A stretch of DNA of 37,853 nt from a virus (lineage: Duplodnaviria; Heunggongvirae; Uroviricota; Caudoviricetes), in the IMG/VR virus record IMGVR_UViG_2851971941_000003, one strand, 5' to 3'. Below the pieces are notes generated by a model, which worked only from the letters and a program-made list of their open reading frames with translations, was not told the DNA's origin and ran no database searches. This document shows, piece after piece, positions 1-36,485 of the stretch. The position numbers and the translations under genes are program-made. The stretch's first letter is position 1. The number at the start of each line of letters is the position of its first letter.

Positions 1-13
1 GATGAAAAGACTG

Positions 14-36
14 TAGGCTGAACTTTTGTCAGCCTA
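14..36 (+). terminator. Hairpin (8-bp stem taggctga / tcagccta, 7-nt loop) followed by a T-rich tract at the left window edge
   Basis: Perfect inverted repeat read directly from sequence; lies in AT-rich DNA left of the invertase remnant. Function not established. Confidence 0.3.
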
Positions 37-159
37 TTTATGTTCTTACTACTCTACATTACCTTCGTCATATCTGTATCCATGCAGCCATGTTAAAAAA
101 TCAACAGAAAAAACCATAAAATCTTCTTCGTATAATGTGTCAGGTATATTTTTTATTGA

Positions 160-276
160 ACTTTGTGCCACTGATTTTATCTTCAAAATCAACTCACATT
201 CTGCACAGTTCAACGAATTACGTTGCAGAGCGGTGTTCCGGTCATTTGTTGATACGCGTACATACCCAATAAGCAT
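160..276 (-). pseudogene. Serine invertase (Gin/Pin/Hin family) 5' remnant: about 38 N-terminal codons, frameshifted and truncated
   Basis: Minus-strand translation from 276 gives MLIGYVRVSTNDRNTALQRNSLNCAECELI, the invertase N-terminus with the catalytic-serine motif. Homology continues in another frame as FEDKISGTK, which implies loss of one T in a T-run near 184-188. Similarity stops near 160 and unrelated AT-rich DNA follows. Confidence 0.6.
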
Positions 277-330
277 GGTAGCTCCCCCTGGCAAAAGCAG
301 GAATGATGCCATTTGCTCGTTATTTCTGCA

Positions 331-356
331 TTTTCATAAACGTTGGTTTGGGAGAA
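331..356. repeat. 26-bp invertase crossover site (gix/hix/pix-like), left copy
   Basis: ttttcataaacgttggtttgggagaa. Its reverse complement matches the right copy at 2179-2204 at 21 of 26 positions and resembles remembered gix/hix consensus (TTnTCCnAAACC..GGTTT). It lies in-frame at the junction of an alternative fibre C-terminus. Confidence 0.6.
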
Positions 357-692
357 GCGGCAAAACGGAATGTGGGAACAGGGGAAAATCAGATACCAGA
401 TATGTCTGCATTTCCATCTGGCAAAAACTGGTTTCAGTTACCAAGTGGTCATATTGTCCAAATGTTTTCGATGAATGTTTATGGGGCGGACACTAACGGA
501 ACTACAGGTAATTTCCCTATTGCATTTCCTTCAGGCGCACTAGCTGTTAGTGCCTTATGGTCAGATGGCTCATTAACGGCTGCTCCGACCTTTAAACTTA
601 TGGGGTACACGACAACAAGGACATCAGTAACTTTAAAAGTATCAACCGGAAATGGTTTGTATGGAACTATGATTATCGCAATAGGAAGATAA
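357..692 (+). CDS. Promoterless alternative tail-fibre C-terminal (variable) domain, silent orientation of the invertible segment
   Basis: Open frame continuing from the crossover site (..INVGLGE|AAKRNVG..) with no fibre N-terminus of its own. It is followed immediately by a Tfa gene, the S'/U' arrangement of the Mu G segment. Confidence 0.5.
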   Translation, partial: AAKRNVGTGENQIPDMSAFPSGKNWFQLPSGHIVQMFSMNVYGADTNGTTGNFPIAFPSGALAVSALWSDGSLTAAPTFKLMGYTTTRTSVTLKVSTGNGLYGTMIIAIGR

Positions 693-693
693 T

Positions 694-1137
694 ATGAATC
701 AATATATTTATTCCCCTTCGGAAAATGCTTTTTATGCTGTTAATTTAAAAAACACTTATGAAGTAAATGGAACATGGCCTGCTGATGCATTAGATATTCC
801 TGATGACATTTCTGTAAAATATATGGCGGAACCGCCACAAGGGAAAATCCGAGTTGCAGGGGAAAATGGTTTTCCCACATGGGCTGAAATACCTCCACCA
901 TCACATGAGGAACTTATTGAACAGGCCGAATCAGAGAGGCAATTATTGATTAACCATGCCAACGAATACATGAACAGTAGGCAATGGCCTGGTAAAGCAG
1001 CTATTGGTCGCCTGAAGGGGGACGAGCTGGCGCAATATAATTTGTGGCTGGATTATCTGGACGCACTGGAACTGGTCGATACTTCCGGGGCGCCAGATAT
1101 TGAATGGCCTACGCCTCCGGCAGTTCAGGCCAGATGA
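694..1137 (+). CDS. Tail fibre assembly protein (Tfa), alternative-cassette copy
   Basis: 147 aa; the C-terminus DTSGAPDIEWPTPPA matches the conserved Tfa C-terminal motif (lambda Tfa DTSTAPDIEWP, from memory). Convergent with the second Tfa and overlapping it at the 3' end. Confidence 0.8.
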   Translation: MNQYIYSPSENAFYAVNLKNTYEVNGTWPADALDIPDDISVKYMAEPPQGKIRVAGENGFPTWAEIPPPSHEELIEQAESERQLLINHANEYMNSRQWPGKAAIGRLKGDELAQYNLWLDYLDALELVDTSGAPDIEWPTPPAVQAR

Positions 1138-1711
1138 CATCCGGCGCTGTGCTGGTATTTGTTGCCGTCACCGCGTCAATGTAATCCAGCACAGCGTTAA
1201 GCCGGGTTGTTTCTGCCTGCATCAACTTCCGTCCGGCCTGTAATTTCAGCTGAATCAGACTGATGGAAGCCATTGCAGCATCAATCAGTGACTGACGCTG
1301 TGCTTCTGCCGCGTCTACTGCGGCGCTATGCTGTGCCTCAGTATCGGTCACCCATTTCTCACCATCCCATTTATCGTATGGCGTTAATGGGGCGATAGTG
1401 GTTGTATTTTCGGGGTAATCACCCGGTGCTGTGATTTCTTTGGCATCTCCCGTTTCGGTGTTATAGACGATTTCACCGCGATGGTCTGGCACATATTCCC
1501 ATGAATTTAAATCTACAGAACGGCAAATTGTATAACCAGCCTTATATGTACCAGGAGCGTCTAAACAGGAATATGCTGGAATACCGACACCCACTGCAAG
1601 ATATTCAGTTGATGCAGAAATATATTCCCGAGTTTCACCATCGTAGTTATAGACGGTAATATTCCCCGCCTTCGTGGCAATAAACTCGCTATTTAATACT
1701 GCGTTATCCAT
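1109..1711 (-). CDS. Tail fibre assembly protein (Tfa), expressed-orientation copy
   Basis: 200 aa; C-terminus TSTAPDVIWPELPEA; sits immediately downstream of the tail fibre gene on the same strand. Confidence 0.8.
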   Translation of the reverse strand: MDNAVLNSEFIATKAGNITVYNYDGETREYISASTEYLAVGVGIPAYSCLDAPGTYKAGYTICRSVDLNSWEYVPDHRGEIVYNTETGDAKEITAPGDYPENTTTIAPLTPYDKWDGEKWVTDTEAQHSAAVDAAEAQRQSLIDAAMASISLIQLKLQAGRKLMQAETTRLNAVLDYIDAVTATNTSTAPDVIWPELPEA

Positions 1712-2481
1712 TATGCAGCCCTCACGATAAAGTTAAATGCAATATTTCGTGGACGGGTCTCACTCCCGCCAGTATTACCGATACTCCCTCGTGAATGAAG
1801 TGTCGGTGATGGGATCAGACTCCCTCCTGTATTTGTGGCATCAAGTCCCCGTCCTTGTGTGTATGTTTTTTTGAAAATCGTAGCCAGTTCCCATTCATCT
1901 TTTGTGTCGTAACCATCATTGGCAACAACAATATGGCGGTGTTTTTCCAGCATCCCAGCCTGAAGGCTCAATAAAGCACGTCCAGCATCAATACCACGCC
2001 CGTCATCCCAGCCACGAATAAACTCACCACGTAAATCTGGCAATTTATTTGTCGGGTAAGCCTTTGCCAGTTCCGGGTATTCTTCAGCAGAAAAAGCTGC
2101 TCCGTTGCATTTCAGCCAGCCTGTTGGCGGAGTGGCTGAAGGCCACGGAACAGGGACACCAACAGGTAATGCAGAGCCTTCTCCCAAACCAAGGTTTTCG
2201 AGAGCCGTTTTCACCGTGCCATCCGATTTGATATCGCCAAACGGATTTTTGCGACTTAACAGCAGCGCACGAAGCGCGGTAAGCAGCTGGTCGTGCCTCT
2301 CCTTCTCCAGGCTGGCACCGGATGCCTCCACCACGCTACAAAGCTCTTCCTGCAACATGTCAAAGTAGTCATCATCCAGATCGGTGGCAGGCGTGCCGGT
2401 CTGGGGGTTGCCACGGGTAAAACCGTTCTTACCCGCGCCGAACTTATCCTTCTGCGCGGTTTTCGTGTCTATGCGATGCAT
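1711..2481 (-). CDS. Tail fibre protein with phage tail-collar domain (constant N-terminus joined to variable C-terminus at the crossover site)
   Basis: 256 aa; tail-collar-like block [10 protein letters not shown]...[22 protein letters not shown] and C-terminal [13 protein letters not shown]. Crossover site copy 2179-2204 lies in-frame at codons 93-101 (ALENLGLGE). Confidence 0.8.
2179..2204. repeat. 26-bp invertase crossover site, right copy (inverted relative to 331-356)
   Basis: ttctcccaaaccaaggttttcgagag; position confirmed by codon arithmetic from the fibre ORF. Confidence 0.6.
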
Positions 2482-2484
2482 GGA

Positions 2485-3069
2485 TTACTCCGGATATTTA
2501 AAAATTACGTAGGTATGAGACGGACAGAGTTTGTTAAGCACACATTCGACAACGGTGTCGCCCCAGATACGCAGTGCGGAATCACAGGGATCGCCACATG
2601 TCATCCAGGTGGTGTTTGTGGCGGCTGGCATGTTGACCTGCCAGTAATACCGCCATTCCGGCGCATTCACCGCGTCAGTACAGGCCGATGAGCAGGTGAA
2701 CGTGCTTTTGTCGTATCGCGTGATGGTAGCGTCTGGTCTGCCCAGGGCAGCAAGCTGTGCAAGATAAAAATTCTCGTTGATGCCGCCCGCCAGGTTAACC
2801 TTCGCATCCAGCCGTTGCTGACGCTGGCGAAGGGTCTGTGTCCCTGCGGGAATACATTCATCCGGCAGACCGCACAGACGCTCCCAGCGGTTTATCAGTT
2901 CAGTGGTGGTGCGCGGATCCAGCTCCCGCATCAGGGCATCCGCACGCTGATGAACGCGGGTTAATGACGGTGCCGCACCGGCAATCGACGGATCGCTGGC
3001 TGACCACGCCGGACCGGGGGGCAACAGTGCCGACAACAGACGGATGTAATCATCGTTTGTCACGTCCAT
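2485..3069 (-). CDS. Baseplate/tail protein, Mu gp48 / YmfQ (DUF2313)-like
   Basis: 194 aa; position between the baseplate J-like gene and the fibre gene as in Mu-like tails; family assignment from memory. Confidence 0.6.
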
Positions 3070-4118
3070 GAAATCGTCCCCAGTACCGCCAGTTCATTTT
3101 TTGCAATGGAGATATTGTCTGCCGGTGCAAGCAACTGATGGCTGTATTCCCCGTTCGCACCGGAAATCGCCTCACTGATACGCGATACCTTCAGTTCTCC
3201 CTGCGGATAACCATCACGCAGCAGGAACGAACGCAACTCCGCGGTGATGGCAGCCCGTATTTCCGGTGTGTCCGGCGTCACGCGGATATGAAAATCCACC
3301 GTATGTGCCACCGGCCTGAACACATACAAATCAGAGCCTGCCACCGGGGCCAGTGGCCCGATATGTTGTCTTGCCGCCGTTTCCGTTGATTCTTCCGGAA
3401 TGGGATTAATCAGGTCACTGCTGGCAATCATCACACCGACAGTTCCCGTTCCCATCCAGTGACGGTATGTCCATGCGCGGGTAATGCCGGGCACTTCTTT
3501 AGCCCAGACGACATAGTCCCCGTCAGCCCCGCCCTGCGGCGTCCAGTAATACCGCTCAATGACGCGGGCGCGCCACGTTTCCAGCTCTTCAGTATCAAAT
3601 CCGCCTGTCAGGGTGTCAGCCACACCGGAAGACGGCAGACCATTCACCGGCGTGACCAGGATTAATGCCGTACCGTCGTCAGCGTTACCGACCGCGCCTG
3701 CACTTGAGCAGGCGATCGGCACGCGCAGGACACCACCGGAGCTGGTTGCATCGGCAGTTGCCGTGTACTGAACCAGGTCATCGCGCTGAATAACACTCCC
3801 GGCGGTCACCTTCAGGCCATCGCTGACACCTTCCCAGCGCATATACCCGCTGGCAGCCGTGGCCCCCTTGCGCGGACACCGTTTCATCGCAGCATGTCGC
3901 GCCAGCCAGGACTCATCGCACAGGTCAGGCAGCATGTTCATTGCCAGATAATCGATGTACCCGTAAACCGTATGCAGCGCCGCCGCATACACCTTTGCCC
4001 GCACGTCTTCATCCATGCGCCGGAGCGTGTCGCTGACGTCCAGCCTGGCGAATAAATCGTTACGGAGCATACTGATATTTTCTGCCAGCGTCGGGCGCTG
4101 AAATTCACTGTCCGCCAT
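3060..4118 (-). CDS. Baseplate J-like protein (Mu gp47 / P2 gpJ family)
   Basis: 352 aa; size and position in a Mu-order tail module. Confidence 0.7.
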
Positions 4119-4533
4119 GCGTTATCGCACTCCACAGATCATCAAAAGAAATCATTACCGGTCCGTCACGACGCCAGAGGGTGATACTGTTACCCAGTTC
4201 ATTAATCCCGGTGCGGCGGATATCCAGATCAATACGGGACACCACGCCGTCATCAATCATCCATTGCAGGCATTCGCGGATATACCCCCTTACCGTCAGC
4301 ACCAGCTGATTGGTCAGTTTGCTGCGCTGAAGCAGCCACAGTCGGGAGCCGTAACGGTCATTCTGTACCGCAGGCCAGGTATCCCCCCACCATCCCATCG
4401 GGACGTCGGCGTTGTCATCAGGCTCCGCCCGCCGCCAGGTAAACAGGGAAATCACCACGGCGCGGGTCAGCGGATCCAGCGGTGCGCTGGCGCAGGTGCG
4501 TTTACCGTTCACCGTCAGCCACAGTTCCATCAT
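4105..4533 (-). CDS. Baseplate protein, Mu gp46-like
   Basis: 142 aa; ends overlap both neighbours in a Mu-like baseplate operon. Confidence 0.55.
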   Translation of the reverse strand: MMELWLTVNGKRTCASAPLDPLTRAVVISLFTWRRAEPDDNADVPMGWWGDTWPAVQNDRYGSRLWLLQRSKLTNQLVLTVRGYIRECLQWMIDDGVVSRIDLDIRRTGINELGNSITLWRRDGPVMISFDDLWSAITHGGQ

Positions 4534-5078
4534 GCCTCCATCGCTTTATCAGGTTTGTCGGTGTTACTGCCCTGACCGTTCTCTCTGTGACGATGCCCGT
4601 TATAGGCAAGCCGCATCGCTGACATGGTGGTGCCGCTGGAGTCGCACAGGTCTTTCACCTGTCCTGTCACTTCCAGGTCCATTTCAAAACGTGCTTTAGG
4701 TGAATTGCGAAACGTGATCGTTTTACCTGCACCGTCCACCACGATCCCCTCCCGGGTCAGCGTCACGGACTGCCCCTGATCGTCATAGACAGCCACCTCA
4801 CCAGTCTGCAGCCCTTTCAGGCGGTAGCGCCGGTCCGACACCGTAACAACCACCGCATGAGAACGGTCACCATCCGGAAACAACACCACCGCTTCCGCAC
4901 CGCTGTTTGCTCTTGCGGTAAAACCGTAGGGTTCAAGATGTTCAACCCCGGCTTTGGGTTCACCGGCAATCAGGGACACATCCACGGTCTGACATTTCGT
5001 GGCGGCACTGATGCTTTTCACCACCGCCCGCCCAATCAGGCCGAGGAGTTGTCGCTGTATGGTTTCAATCGCCTTCAT
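4530..5078 (-). CDS. Baseplate assembly protein V / spike (Mu gp45-like)
   Basis: 182 aa; position and size. Confidence 0.6.
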   Translation of the reverse strand: MKAIETIQRQLLGLIGRAVVKSISAATKCQTVDVSLIAGEPKAGVEHLEPYGFTARANSGAEAVVLFPDGDRSHAVVVTVSDRRYRLKGLQTGEVAVYDDQGQSVTLTREGIVVDGAGKTITFRNSPKARFEMDLEVTGQVKDLCDSSGTTMSAMRLAYNGHRHRENGQGSNTDKPDKAMEA

Positions 5079-6157
5079 CAGAACGGGTCCTCCTGTACTC
5101 TGGCTTTTTTCTTTTTCCGCGCGCCGGGGGCTTCGGGTTCAGGCAGATAAGCATCAGGTGGGCCGACACGGATTTCCGTCAGGGTGCCATTCTGGTCCTG
5201 AGTAAACGTGACTTCCGAGACAAGCAGTTCGGTATTGTCGAAACCACAGACCGGATCGAAGACAATCACCCGCTGGTTGGGCTGCCACAGCGTACCGTTA
5301 CCCTGTCGCCAGCCCTGCACCACATAGGTGGTTTCATCCGTCCGCGCCGCCCGTTGTCGGGCTTCAAAGTCAGCACGCGCAATACAGCCTGCCCCCGTAG
5401 CCTGCCCTGTCTGCCTGATATACATCGGACGGTAACGGGCAATAAATGCATCCTCTGTGCGGGCCCGCAGCGCGGTGGTGGTGGCCTCACCGAAATCATC
5501 GTCGTTTCCGGCACGCTGCCCCGCCACCTGGTAAACTGAAAACCGCTCCCGGATACTCTTCTCCGTATCACAGGAAAGGATGTTTTCCCCAAGTACCAGC
5601 GCGGTATGTGCCTGCGTTGAGCCAATACCACCAATCACCAGCCTGCCGTGCGGGTCGTCATAAGCCAGCGCCTGCTGCTGACCGAGTATTTTGTTGATCA
5701 CCTCGATCACCGTTTCACCGTGATCAGGCTGGACATCCGGAATAACACCCGACGGCGCATCGCTGTTCACCACCTCAATGCCGAAAGGCGCAGCAAGCGC
5801 CTGCGCAATCTGTACCAGCGATCGTCCGTTAAACTGTGTCGGTTCGGCTGCACAGTCAATCAGGTCAGCAGTCAGACTACGTCCGGCAATACCGGTGCTG
5901 ACCGAACGGGCATCGTAACGAACGGGGGTCGCCTCCACCCAGCCGGTGATCACCAGCTCATCACCAATCAGCACTTCCACTTTTGAACCATTTTTAATGC
6001 GCGGCTGAAGCGTGGTGATACCCTCATCACCCGGCCACTGGCGGGTGATCTCCACGCTGAAATCCCGCGCCAGCCGTTCAATACCGGCACCGATGCGCAC
6101 CGATGTCCAGCCATTCCACTCCCGGCCATTTACCCGTAGCGTGACATTGTCGTTCAT
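5078..6157 (-). CDS. Baseplate hub-like tail protein (Mu gp44 / P2 gpD-like)
   Basis: 359 aa; position after the DNA-circulation-like gene. Confidence 0.55.
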   Translation of the reverse strand: MNDNVTLRVNGREWNGWTSVRIGAGIERLARDFSVEITRQWPGDEGITTLQPRIKNGSKVEVLIGDELVITGWVEATPVRYDARSVSTGIAGRSLTADLIDCAAEPTQFNGRSLVQIAQALAAPFGIEVVNSDAPSGVIPDVQPDHGETVIEVINKILGQQQALAYDDPHGRLVIGGIGSTQAHTALVLGENILSCDTEKSIRERFSVYQVAGQRAGNDDDFGEATTTALRARTEDAFIARYRPMYIRQTGQATGAGCIARADFEARQRAARTDETTYVVQGWRQGNGTLWQPNQRVIVFDPVCGFDNTELLVSEVTFTQDQNGTLTEIRVGPPDAYLPEPEAPGARKKKKARVQEDPF

Positions 6158-7482
6158 TGCACTGGCACCTTCAGAGGGATCACCGGCACAAAGCCGGGAT
6201 GCGTAATGGCATTACGCCGGATAATGTCCGCGTCACGCGCCGCGTTATCAAACCAGGTCGCCGCCAGCACCAGCGCGGGTAAAACCTCATCCGGTGTGCG
6301 CTGAATGATCCGTGCAGACTGTTCAAGGCGCGTGTTGATATCCGCATTCAGATCTGCTTTCACCCGGCGCAGCGCCAGAAACAGCGCATCGCTGGTTGTA
6401 CGGGACAACTCCTTATCAATTGCCGTATTCAGTGTGTCGCGAATGTCAGTCAGTTCTTCCCACGTCGGCAGGTCAACCGTGTTTTTCACCGCCGGTGCAT
6501 TGTTCAGTGCCGGATGCGTGACGGAAGGCCAGCCAGTGCTCTGCGCGGGTGTTGTTGCCTGCCCCACTGCGGAATTCTGCATCACCGCGGAAGTTGTTGG
6601 CGCAGGCAATCGGGTGACGGCATACGCCGCTTCGCTGATTGCGGTCGTACGAAGGGTGCTGGCAACCACGTTACGCTGCTGCGTCGCCGTGGCGGTGGTT
6701 TTACTGTCCGTTTTCCAGACGCCGCGCGGTTGCAGATCGCTGCCGAGGCTGACACCGGAAAGCGTTTTGATCATGGTGACCAGGTCGCTGGCGTTACCAT
6801 AAAGGCGTTTCCCGGTACGCCACATTTTCTGCACCTGCTCAACGAAATTTTTGCCTGACGATGGCGGCGGCAGAAGTACCGAGATATCCCCCTGCAACAG
6901 CCTGGCGGCATCCGATACGGCAGAATCCACCACTTTCATCGCATCAGAAACATACCCCAGCATTATGCTGGCATTACCGATAACGTCGTTCTGCACGAAA
7001 TCCGCCACACCATCGATACTGAAACCGCTGAAGCTGTCACTGATGCAGTCATCCAGTGCAGAACAGGATGACATCAGCGTCTGCGCCGTCGCCGCACCTG
7101 ATGTGGGGTAAGAGAGTTCTCCTGCTTCGACAAACTTCAGGTCAAAGCGGACAATACGCCCTTCACTTTTCGATGTGCTGACCCGAACTTCCCCGTCAAC
7201 ACAGACTTTCAGCTCACCGTATGTCGGATGGACAAGCGTGCCGGGACCGGGTTTATTCAGCGCGTCAATCAGGCGATCGCGCTGGTCAAAGCAGTCATCT
7301 CCCACCACATAAGCCGTGATGGACGGGCGGAAAGTGACTTTTCCCAGATCTTCGGTATAGGGTTTGTCGCGGTTCGGGTATTCGTGCGTTTCCACACGGC
7401 GACCTGTTCCCGCACTTTCTTCTTCGACCTTAAACGGCACGCCGCGAAATGACGCGTCCTGAAGCCTGTCTTTCCACGTCAT
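6154..7482 (-). CDS. DNA circulation protein-like tail protein (Mu gp43 family)
   Basis: 442 aa; N-terminal region typical of the Mu gp43 family as I remember it; follows the tape measure gene as in Mu. Confidence 0.6.
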   Translation of the reverse strand: MTWKDRLQDASFRGVPFKVEEESAGTGRRVETHEYPNRDKPYTEDLGKVTFRPSITAYVVGDDCFDQRDRLIDALNKPGPGTLVHPTYGELKVCVDGEVRVSTSKSEGRIVRFDLKFVEAGELSYPTSGAATAQTLMSSCSALDDCISDSFSGFSIDGVADFVQNDVIGNASIMLGYVSDAMKVVDSAVSDAARLLQGDISVLLPPPSSGKNFVEQVQKMWRTGKRLYGNASDLVTMIKTLSGVSLGSDLQPRGVWKTDSKTTATATQQRNVVASTLRTTAISEAAYAVTRLPAPTTSAVMQNSAVGQATTPAQSTGWPSVTHPALNNAPAVKNTVDLPTWEELTDIRDTLNTAIDKELSRTTSDALFLALRRVKADLNADINTRLEQSARIIQRTPDEVLPALVLAATWFDNAARDADIIRRNAITHPGFVPVIPLKVPVQ

Positions 7483-23240: not shown

Positions 23241-24332
23241 ATGAAGAAAATCGAAAAACTGTTCACTGAAGTAATACGGAAGTTGCGCCATAAGAAATTT
23301 ATGCGCTCGATAGCTAGTAAAAGAAGCACAACAGAAAGAAAGCTAAAACGTAATGGAAGTTTAAAAAAAATCGCTCCAGAGAAAATACTTGCTCCAACCA
23401 TACTTGATATTTACAAGGCGGAATATCATGAGAATGTGGTTAATTTTATAGAAAAAATAGAAAACAAAGCAAAGACAGGAAATAAAAAGATATATATATG
23501 TTTTAGAAATACAATTCATATATCGGCTGCTGCTGGCTTATTTCTTCTTGCAAAACTAGAGACGTTAAAAAGCAATCATAGGGACTTAAAATATATCGTA
23601 GCCAAACCGCCAATCAAAACTTCATCAAAAGGAGAACAGCACGTTGTTGATTCTGTTTTGAACAGAATCGGAATCTATGCAGCATTAGGTGTTAAATCAA
23701 GAGAAATGAGAGAAACTCCGTCTGTAAAATGTTGGGAGGTAATTCGTGGCGAACTAGTAGATTCGGAAATTGCAGGAAACTTATTAGAAACAATCACAGA
23801 AAAAATGGGTACCGATTATACAGATTTATATCGTCCCTTGATAGAAGCCATGTCTAATTCAGTAGAACATGCATATCGAGACGATTTATATGACTCAAAT
23901 AAAAATAACAATAAAAATAAATGGTGGTGCTTTGCTGCAATTATGAACAACAAGTTAATATTACTAATTTGTGACCTCGGTGTAGGTATACCTAAAACGT
24001 TAAAACTTACTCAAGGTGAAAAGGTTCTTGCAAAGCTAACCGAGTTCCTTGGTAAGCCATTAGTCCTTGATTCAGAACATATAAAAGCCTCATTGCAGGT
24101 TAAACGAACCCGAACAAAGCTTGGATACAGAGGGAAAGGAGGAACTGATTTACAATCTATCATAGAAAACTTTGAAAATGCACAATTACGAATTATATCC
24201 AACAAAGGAAATTACAGATATACTCATCGTAAGAAAGCAAGACCAGAGTTAATGTGGGATGCCAAACATTCCATCAACGGTACTATAGTTGAATGGAGCG
24301 TACCGCTACCAAATGAAGGAGACTCTCAATGA
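23241..24332 (+). CDS. GHKL-superfamily ATPase / RsbW-like kinase-fold protein with unassigned basic N-terminal domain
   Basis: 363 aa; N-box EAMSNSVEHAY (aa 202-212), G1 box DLGVG (aa 245-249), G2-like GYRGKGGTD (aa 296-304). AT-rich; stop overlaps the next start (ATGA). Confidence 0.75.
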   Translation: MKKIEKLFTEVIRKLRHKKFMRSIASKRSTTERKLKRNGSLKKIAPEKILAPTILDIYKAEYHENVVNFIEKIENKAKTGNKKIYICFRNTIHISAAAGLFLLAKLETLKSNHRDLKYIVAKPPIKTSSKGEQHVVDSVLNRIGIYAALGVKSREMRETPSVKCWEVIRGELVDSEIAGNLLETITEKMGTDYTDLYRPLIEAMSNSVEHAYRDDLYDSNKNNNKNKWWCFAAIMNNKLILLICDLGVGIPKTLKLTQGEKVLAKLTEFLGKPLVLDSEHIKASLQVKRTRTKLGYRGKGGTDLQSIIENFENAQLRIISNKGNYRYTHRKKARPELMWDAKHSINGTIVEWSVPLPNEGDSQ

Positions 24333-24646
24333 AAACCTTATTTATCAAGGACTTTTCAAGATTCCCGGGGCCTAGATACGAAAGGTTAGGTGAAAACAGT
24401 GGCGAAAAATTCCGCGATTTATTTTTGATACCAGCACTTAACGAAAATCCAGACTTAGTCATTGACTTTGATGGTGTTTTTGGCTATGGCTCATCTTTCC
24501 TTGAGGAGGCCTTTGGAGGTTTGGTGCGTAAAGGGATAGAGCGCGAAAAATTGGAGAAGCTTAAGAAGAATCTCAAAAGTAAAGATCAATACATTATTGA
24601 GGAAGTAATTTCATATATTGATGATGCTCTGCGAGATCTAAAATAA
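24329..24646 (+). CDS. STAS-like small protein (DUF4325-type), candidate partner of the ATPase
   Basis: 105 aa; block DFDGVFGYGSSFLEEAFGGL matches my memory of the DUF4325 STAS-like family; translationally coupled on both sides. Confidence 0.65.
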   Translation: MKTLFIKDFSRFPGPRYERLGENSGEKFRDLFLIPALNENPDLVIDFDGVFGYGSSFLEEAFGGLVRKGIEREKLEKLKKNLKSKDQYIIEEVISYIDDALRDLK

Positions 24647-25107
24647 TGGACACTGACGTTACTCAGAATTTATGGACAATGCCTGCAACGATTATAGCGA
24701 TTGTTGGCATTTTTTTAACAATATTAGGCTGGATAGTTACAGCAATACTTACTCGCATTAACAATGCGAAGAATTTAAAAAAACTAGAAATAAATAGACT
24801 TATTGATGAGTTATTTTATAAATTAGATTTTATTTATAGCGAAATGCTTGAATTGCTGCGAGACGATAAAAAAGACAAACAAGTCCTATATTACATTTTT
24901 ACATCATCAGTAAGGCATGTTGAGTTTATTTGCGAGCGAATTGAACTATTAGACAACAAAAAAAACAAAGACAATGGATTAATATCTGAATTAAGACAAG
25001 CATGTACTAACGATGCGAAATATGAAAAAGAAAAAATTGGAACAACATTACATGAAATCCAAAGCGCTAATGAAAAACTCAAAAACAAATATCTGAAATC
25101 ATTTTAA
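24646..25107 (+). CDS. Small membrane protein (one N-terminal TM helix, charged coiled-coil-like tail), candidate effector
   Basis: 153 aa; TM segment about aa 11-36 (TMPATIIAIVGIFLTILGWIVTAIL); start overlaps the previous stop (TAATG). Confidence 0.6.
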   Translation: MDTDVTQNLWTMPATIIAIVGIFLTILGWIVTAILTRINNAKNLKKLEINRLIDELFYKLDFIYSEMLELLRDDKKDKQVLYYIFTSSVRHVEFICERIELLDNKKNKDNGLISELRQACTNDAKYEKEKIGTTLHEIQSANEKLKNKYLKSF

Positions 25108-36395: not shown

Positions 36396-36409
36396 CTTAT
36401 TGATTTTAA

Positions 36410-36485
36410 TGGTGCCGATAATAGGAGTCGAACCTACGACCTTCGCATTACGAATGCGCTGCTCTACCAACTGAGCTATATCGGC
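36410..36485 (-). tRNA. thrW: tRNA-Thr (anticodon CGU), prophage integration target
   Basis: Minus-strand 76-nt sequence GCCGATATAGCTCAGTTGGTAGAGCAGCGCATTCGTAATGCGAAGGTCGTAGGTTCGACTCCTATTATCGGCACCA with clover-leaf features and CGT anticodon; next to proA as thrW is in E. coli. Confidence 0.9.

Follow-up and report, generated by a model that had tools for sequence, protein, structure and literature searches.

Among described systems, the closest to the locus reported here is the P region of the e14 element of Escherichia coli K-12 (stfP/ycfK–tfaP–tfaE–stfE–pinE). Inversion of the e14 P segment has been detected in growing K-12 cultures by sequencing and PCR (PMC4272514), and quantitative PCR has shown that it is carried out by PinE and also, in trans, by PinQ and PinR (PMC12529663). 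The next relatives are the G segment of phage Mu, with its invertase gene gin, and the C segment of phage P1, with cin; both encode a working invertase and have the layout Sc–Sv–U/U′–Sv′. We analysed a 37,853-nucleotide viral sequence of the Caudoviricetes (IMG/VR record IMGVR_UViG_2851971941_000003; hereafter, the window), in which this same layout is found near the left end.

The initial annotation had placed the locus in the Mu G-segment/e14 P-region architecture, and the identity of its crossover sites, its gene layout and the existence of a natural flipped form show that this is exactly the type to which it belongs. It is orthologous to the e14 P segment and therefore an already known system. 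Little new biology attaches to the switch itself, the type being documented across E. coli genomes (PMC4272514, PMC12529663); what is added here is that this copy is orphaned, its invertase having been lost. In the explanation that we consider best (probability of about 0.85), the locus is an e14 P region that has been orphaned and is now either locked or flippable only in trans.

Comparison with known invertible segments

The window and e14 of K-12 have the same gene order downstream of ymfQ, tfaE genes of the same length and identical 26-bp sites, which in K-12 lie within stfP/ycfK and in the interval from stfE to pinE, and they belong to one prophage family (ymfQ, ymfR, ymfL, ymfK and ymfT are shared). 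They differ in several respects. K-12 has an intact pinE, whereas the window retains a 39-codon remnant; the segment measures 1,827 bp in K-12 and 1,848 bp, centre to centre, in the window; the alleles differ in the gp53-like arm and over the distal 90 or so residues of the collar arm; and the K-12 reference has the opposite orientation. In addition, e14 is a defective element at icd, whereas the window holds a complete prophage at thrW.

With Mu and P1, the window shares the half-site pattern of the 26-bp sites, with 14 positions invariant over the eight sites compared, and its invertase remnant is homologous to the N-terminus and enhancer-bearing 5′ coding region of their invertases. However, the Mu and P1 sites match those of the window at only 17–20 of 26 positions, the gix core being TC rather than TT, and the fibres of both phages are far longer. 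P1 cin points towards its segment; gin and pin point away from theirs.

A further copy of the cassette is found in P2-like prophages of E. coli TUM13066 and JP538, which match window positions 160–2195 at 97.5–97.8% identity, a stretch that takes in the beginning of the invertase gene together with the two arms and the two chaperones. There, a 509-aa fibre N-terminus of the P2 H type precedes the cassette, the two meeting at the crossover site, and the recombinase is intact (188 aa). This arrangement fits the known modular exchange of such cassettes between phage types.

Anatomy of the invertible segment

The invertible segment occupies positions 343..2192 and divides a split fibre gene, which our analysis confirms: the constant N-terminus lies outside the segment, and two opposed C-termini lie inside it, each followed by its own Tfa gene. 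The expressed fibre gene proposed at 1711–2481 (minus strand) is a 256-aa ORF with a Collar domain. Its constant N-terminal part (Sc, approximately aa 1–96; 2193..2481, minus strand) sits directly downstream of ymfQ, is common to both natural isoforms and is nearly identical to residues 1–100 of K-12 StfP. The variable C-terminus in present use (Sv; 1711..2192, minus strand) is of the collar type (Pfam Collar PF07484, E = 1.6e-15), in a StfP2-like state. Up to about residue 165 the expressed fibre is identical, or nearly so, to K-12 StfP2 as reconstructed in silico, and the distal approximately 90 aa diverge.

The alternative C-terminus (Sv′) is encoded on the plus strand, is gp53-like from position 345 (Pfam Gp53-like_C, E = 4.1e-9) and occupies the position of K-12 StfE2. 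It had been described as a promoterless arm at 357–692. The arm is indeed present, and a consensus scan found no promoter-like site within approximately 180 bp upstream of it, a scan that returned fewer consensus sites than shuffled sequences and is uninformative on expression of the silent arm. Its extent has to be revised, because the frame is open upstream to ATG codons at 303/306, so that the arm forms an ATG-initiated ORF (303..692) for which RefSeq annotates a CDS at 306..692. An AGGA lies only 0–3 nt from these ATGs.

Between the sites lie two chaperone genes, the first co-oriented with Sv (tfaE, also so named in RefSeq; 1109..1711, minus strand; Pfam Caudo_TAP, E = 2e-30) and the second, of the tfaP type, co-oriented with Sv′ (694..1137, plus strand; Caudo_TAP, E = 1.4e-32). 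They form the convergent, overlapping pair that had been noted: both match PF02413 and they overlap by 29 bp, with the identity between the two proteins (34%) confined to the C-terminal 80 aa. The two fibre C-termini carry different Pfam domains and are unrelated by BLASTP as well (E = 0.44). Strand exchange in silico at the central dinucleotides yields an in-frame fibre of 212 aa. With unrelated C-termini, a chaperone for each and a flip that preserves the frame, the claim that inversion would exchange both the fibre C-terminus and its chaperone is upheld; such an exchange would probably alter receptor specificity. For annotation, the locus is instructive in that RefSeq presents it as five separate ORFs, with the silent arm as an ordinary CDS.

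Crossover sites

The invertase-proximal, pix-type site is at 331..356 on the plus strand (TTTTCATAAACG TT GGTTTGGGAGAA; in full, TTTTCATAAACGTTGGTTTGGGAGAA), and its partner within the expressed fibre gene is at 2179..2204 on the minus strand (CTCTCGAAAACC TT GGTTTGGGAGAA; the reverse complement of 2179–2204 is CTCTCGAAAACCTTGGTTTGGGAGAA). Coordinates and match count were reproduced as first given: in inverted orientation the two sites agree at 21 of 26 positions, and the central dinucleotide is TT/AA in both. Translation likewise bears out the in-frame junction described at each site, both encoding GLGE. Dyad symmetry between half-sites amounts to 8/12 and 9/12 matches, and the top inverted repeat in positions 1–3200 is the pair 338–357/2178–2197 (19/20).

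On its own, the 21/26 repeat statistic is weak, because 2 of 30 shuffled versions of the first 3.2 kb also contain an inverted match as good. The sites were therefore judged not by the raw repeat statistic but by a family core motif and by identity with the K-12 sites. The core motif, AAACSWWGGTTT, occurs only twice in the 37.8-kb window, at precisely the two sites (0.04 occurrences expected), and none of 100 shuffles contained as many matches. Each site is intact, as had been claimed, being identical at 26/26 positions to its K-12 e14 counterpart, 331–356 to the one beside pinE and 2179–2204 to the one in stfP/ycfK. Aligned as the initial annotation suggested, the sites are also in register with P1 cixL and cixR as annotated (19–20/26) and with the Mu gix sites that bound the G segment (17–18/26).

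Natural occurrence of both orientations

Window positions 1–2600 are 100% identical to four complete E. coli genomes (FDAARGOS_1267, B1172, AST216 and OZ547033), and all four have the same orientation, which corresponds to the 'inverted' state of K-12 nomenclature (StfP2/StfE2). Among related genomes, both orientations occur. The flipped fibre gene was found as one contiguous gene at full length in five genomes (97.5–97.8% identity) and at 85% coverage in two more; overall, the parental form is present in 74 genomes and the flipped form in 7.

In strain muskdeer13-4, pinE is intact and both Tfa proteins have the accessions found in the genome of the window. Against the window flipped in silico, its locus gives a single collinear alignment of 2,942 bp at 98.0% identity. 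Against the real window it aligns in three pieces, with block 338–2197 inverted (99.5% identical) and the flanks collinear. The breakpoints of this natural inversion therefore fall inside both 26-bp sites, 331–356 forming the left switch point and 2179–2204 the right.

These breakpoints also bear on the possibility that the sites are a coincidental inverted repeat, produced by a GLGE-coding motif common to fibre genes, at which no site-specific recombination takes place. The same peptide is encoded at both sites, and the shuffles show that a 21/26 match can arise somewhere in 3.2 kb. However, the sites are identical to those used experimentally in e14, the core motif is unique to them in the window, the natural breakpoints lie exactly within them, and the similarity to the P2-like prophage cassette stops at 2195, within the right-hand site. 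The breakpoints and the 26/26 identity effectively refute a chance origin, to which we give almost no credence, and the earlier claim of inversion at these sites is supported by the two orientations found in relatives.

Invertase remnant, cargo and prophage setting

What remains of the Pin-family serine invertase gene is a stub at 160..276 on the minus strand, comprising codons 1–39 of 184, with a 1-bp deletion in a T-run near 186–189 (gene nt 89–93). In an alignment with intact pinE, similarity is limited to the stretch between 276 and about 160. The stub gives a weak Pfam match to the Resolvase N-terminal domain, and RefSeq labels it a pseudogene ('frameshifted; missing C-terminus'). The truncation was not part of the finding reported in the initial annotation. 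There is no adjacent intact serine invertase gene at this locus, whereas orthologous loci have an intact pinE. Because its cognate invertase is reduced to a 39-codon frameshifted remnant, this copy of the switch is not autonomous; it is a degraded member that descends from the Gin/Hin/Cin/Pin family of switches.

To the left of the remnant lies unrelated DNA ending in a DUF4145 gene, and an exact 48-bp copy of the tRNA-Thr 3′ end is found 5.1 kb further left. This copy places the aminotransferase, the DMT transporter, two hypothetical genes and DUF4145 within the borders of the prophage, as cargo. The cargo DNA displaced the 3′ part of pin. The same spot downstream of pin is occupied elsewhere by other genes, namely mcrA in K-12 and a GIY-YIG protein gene in MB15, in place of the DUF4145, DMT transporter and aminotransferase genes seen here. 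The junction between DUF4145 and the remnant is rare, occurring in 5 of 5,426 genomes. The locus shows how, in nature, the arrival of cargo at the hot spot downstream of pin can orphan an invertible cassette.

The prophage around it is of the e14 family and essentially complete: it has terminase, portal, capsid, sheath, tube and tape-measure genes, Mu-like baseplate genes and ymfQ, together with lysis genes, Q, the repressor gene ymfK and an integrase gene by tRNA-Thr and proA.

The enhancer-equivalent interval

In the P1 record, the Cin enhancer is annotated at cin nt 19–90, and the 5′ ends of the invertase genes are collinear. Projected through this alignment, the equivalent of the recombinational (Fis) enhancer would lie at 187..258 in the window, an interval that starts 85 bp from the centre of the site. 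This distance is consistent with that of the Hin enhancer, which is approximately 100 bp from its site (PMC3798978).

The interval has two candidate positions for G-N13-C motifs resembling Fis cores, 49 bp apart. The corresponding spacing in Hin is 48 bp. The remnant keeps the proximal motif (nt 22–36) and has lost the distal one (nt 71–85) through the changes C85T and G77A; the single-base deletion, at nt 89, lies just past the distal motif. Altogether, the remnant departs at six positions from bases that do not vary among seven intact genes (pinE, three copies; P2-like recombinase, two copies; gin; cin). The enhancer-equivalent interval is thus physically retained, and the enhancer appears to be partly degraded. 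Given the altered distal Fis-like motif, even an invertase supplied in trans might fail.

Can the switch still flip

The locus is the P region of an e14-family prophage that lies at tRNA-Thr beside proA, and this region is its invertible tail-fibre segment. In our model, a Pin-type serine DNA invertase would bind both 26-bp sites and, assisted by Fis on an enhancer at the 5′ end of its own gene, would exchange strands at the central TT/AA and so invert 1,848 bp; dependence on Fis and the enhancer is what we infer. The fibre N-terminus, ending ...ENLGLGE, would stay constant. In one state, the present one, it would continue into the collar-type C-terminus followed by tfaE, as a fibre of 256 aa; in the other, it would continue into the gp53-like C-terminus followed by the other tfa gene, as a fibre of 212 aa. 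Inversion would accordingly change the receptor-binding tip together with its chaperone. The window copy, in the StfP2/StfE2 orientation and with its invertase cut to 39 frameshifted codons, cannot flip itself. It could presumably be changed only by a Pin paralogue of another prophage, acting in trans on the retained enhancer, and would otherwise be locked.

We searched for such paralogues with chimeric queries. The first query was dropped, because it matched 5,423 of 5,426 genomes through ubiquitous paralogues of part of the cargo, and the search was redone with a tighter anchor and an anchor-only control. The resulting counts are of extra invertase-homologous places on the chromosome, irrespective of location or intactness: one each in FDAARGOS_1267, AST216 and OZ547033, and three in EC6563. 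On the B1172 chromosome, the same search, with its anchor-only control, found no second invertase homologue.

Two outcomes can be envisaged. Inversion of the window copy in trans may still be occurring, or the locus may be a frozen relic that inverts in no carrier, the fibre being fixed in the collar type while the other arm decays as silent DNA. The latter is a serious possibility, to which we give somewhat less than even odds. It is favoured by the single orientation in all four genomes identical to the window, by the six altered positions and the missing distal motif in the remnant, by B1172, which has no other chromosomal invertase homologue, and by the report that K-12 strains deleted for pinE are locked even though their chromosomes carry pinQ and pinR (PMC12529663). 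The delta-pinE deletions, we infer, remove the enhancer too, unlike the situation here, where it is retained. Several observations speak against a frozen state. Neither arm has lost its ORF, and neither site differs from its K-12 counterpart; a further invertase homologue is present in three of the four genomes that are identical to the window; and EC6563, which has three more homologues, shares the truncated junction (97.5% identity over window positions 1–357) in the opposite orientation.

EC6563 was considered as a clean case of inversion after truncation and rejected as such: identity in its tfaE/collar arm falls to 92.8%, and the gp53-like arm there is another allele. Its orientation may stem from replacement of the cassette through homologous recombination instead of from inversion in trans.

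The silent arm and a possible role in defence

The alternative arm invites a different reading, in which the locus is a host-domesticated defence switch and not a host-range device of the phage. As reported for K-12, the present orientation sets the ORF 303..692 beside what is left of the invertase gene; the ORF product would keep other phages from adsorbing, a state that would have become fixed when the invertase was lost. The window is in the StfP2/StfE2 orientation, its ORF begins with the 17-aa leader of K-12 StfE2, and over-produced StfE2 is reported to block adsorption of T2 (PMC12529663). However, beyond the leader the body of the ORF is a different gp53-like allele, identical to K-12 StfE2 at 49 of 134 positions, and the adsorption-blocking function of StfE2 cannot be transferred to it. 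The K-12 evidence comes from over-production from a plasmid, whereas the ORF here has no promoter-like site within the approximately 180 bp scanned upstream and has its AGGA almost abutting the ATGs. The prophage is structurally complete, which makes a role in the fibre the simpler reading, and we regard domestication for defence as improbable.

A related proposal is that what is left of the invertase gene at its 5′ end persists because of the cis enhancer that it carries. Pin paralogues in other prophages would then operate the orphan switch in trans, as PinQ and PinR do on e14 in K-12, and the switch would serve, possibly, host defence through the StfE2-like ORF instead of host range. In line with this, EC6563, a carrier of the truncated junction with three other invertase homologues, shows the opposite orientation. 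We consider this proposal unlikely too. The orphaned P region, locked or flippable only in trans, could serve as a test case of whether an enhancer-bearing 5′ invertase stub is enough for control in trans by the invertases of other prophages. Two independent truncations of pin end just past the enhancer-equivalent interval (nt 19–90), with approximately 118 nt kept in the window and 105 nt in strain 2012C-4221.

Exchange of the invertible cassette between phage types

The invertible cassette, an e14 P-region-type arrangement, is also present in P2-like prophages of E. coli TUM13066 and JP538 (3052-6583 in both loci), with 97.5–97.8% identity to window 160-2195. In these prophages, it follows an H-type fibre N-terminus of 509 aa. 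The similarity between the window and the two prophages stops at the crossover site, indicating that different phage types have exchanged the cassette.

In RefSeq, the silent fibre arm (306-692, + strand) appears as an ordinary CDS for a 'gp53-like domain-containing protein' (WP_019842908.1), the first ~14 codons of which derive from the spacer between the pin remnant and the crossover site. This annotation obscures the structure of the invertible segment.

Independent truncation of the invertase gene

We found that the invertase gene has been truncated a second time, independently of the window, in E. coli 2012C-4221 (locus positions 5706-5965). There, the remaining 105 nt are fused directly to a 3' tfa fragment, with the invertible segment in the flipped orientation. 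In both 2012C-4221 and the window, where ~118 nt are retained, the stub extends only slightly beyond the enhancer-equivalent interval (187-258 in the window).

Cargo DNA and prophage borders

Within the prophage borders, the 3' part of pin has been replaced by cargo DNA, seen in window positions 1-160 and in L001 (1-6000), the genome sequence immediately to the left. The cargo carries genes for a PLP-dependent aminotransferase and a DMT transporter, two hypothetical genes, and a DUF4145 gene with a terminator-like hairpin at window 13-37. In E. coli EC6563, retron Ec48 (reverse transcriptase and effector) lies upstream of the DUF4145 block. The position that the cargo occupies in the window is taken by mcrA in K-12 e14 and by a GIY-YIG protein in MB15. 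The region downstream of pin looks like a hot spot for cargo and defence genes.

The 3' end of the tRNA-Thr gene is present twice, as a 48-bp exact direct repeat (window 36408-36455 and L001 843-890) that is likely to be the att core. The L001 copy places the far prophage border ~5.1 kb to the left of the window start. Just beyond the repeat on that side lies an incomplete integrase fragment with an Arm DNA-binding domain, which suggests tandem elements at thrW.

Between the holin and Q antiterminator genes, three genes on the opposite strand (23241-25107, +) encode a hypothetical protein (363 aa), a STAS-like domain protein and another hypothetical protein (~150 aa); together they look like an accessory module, a moron or defence candidate.
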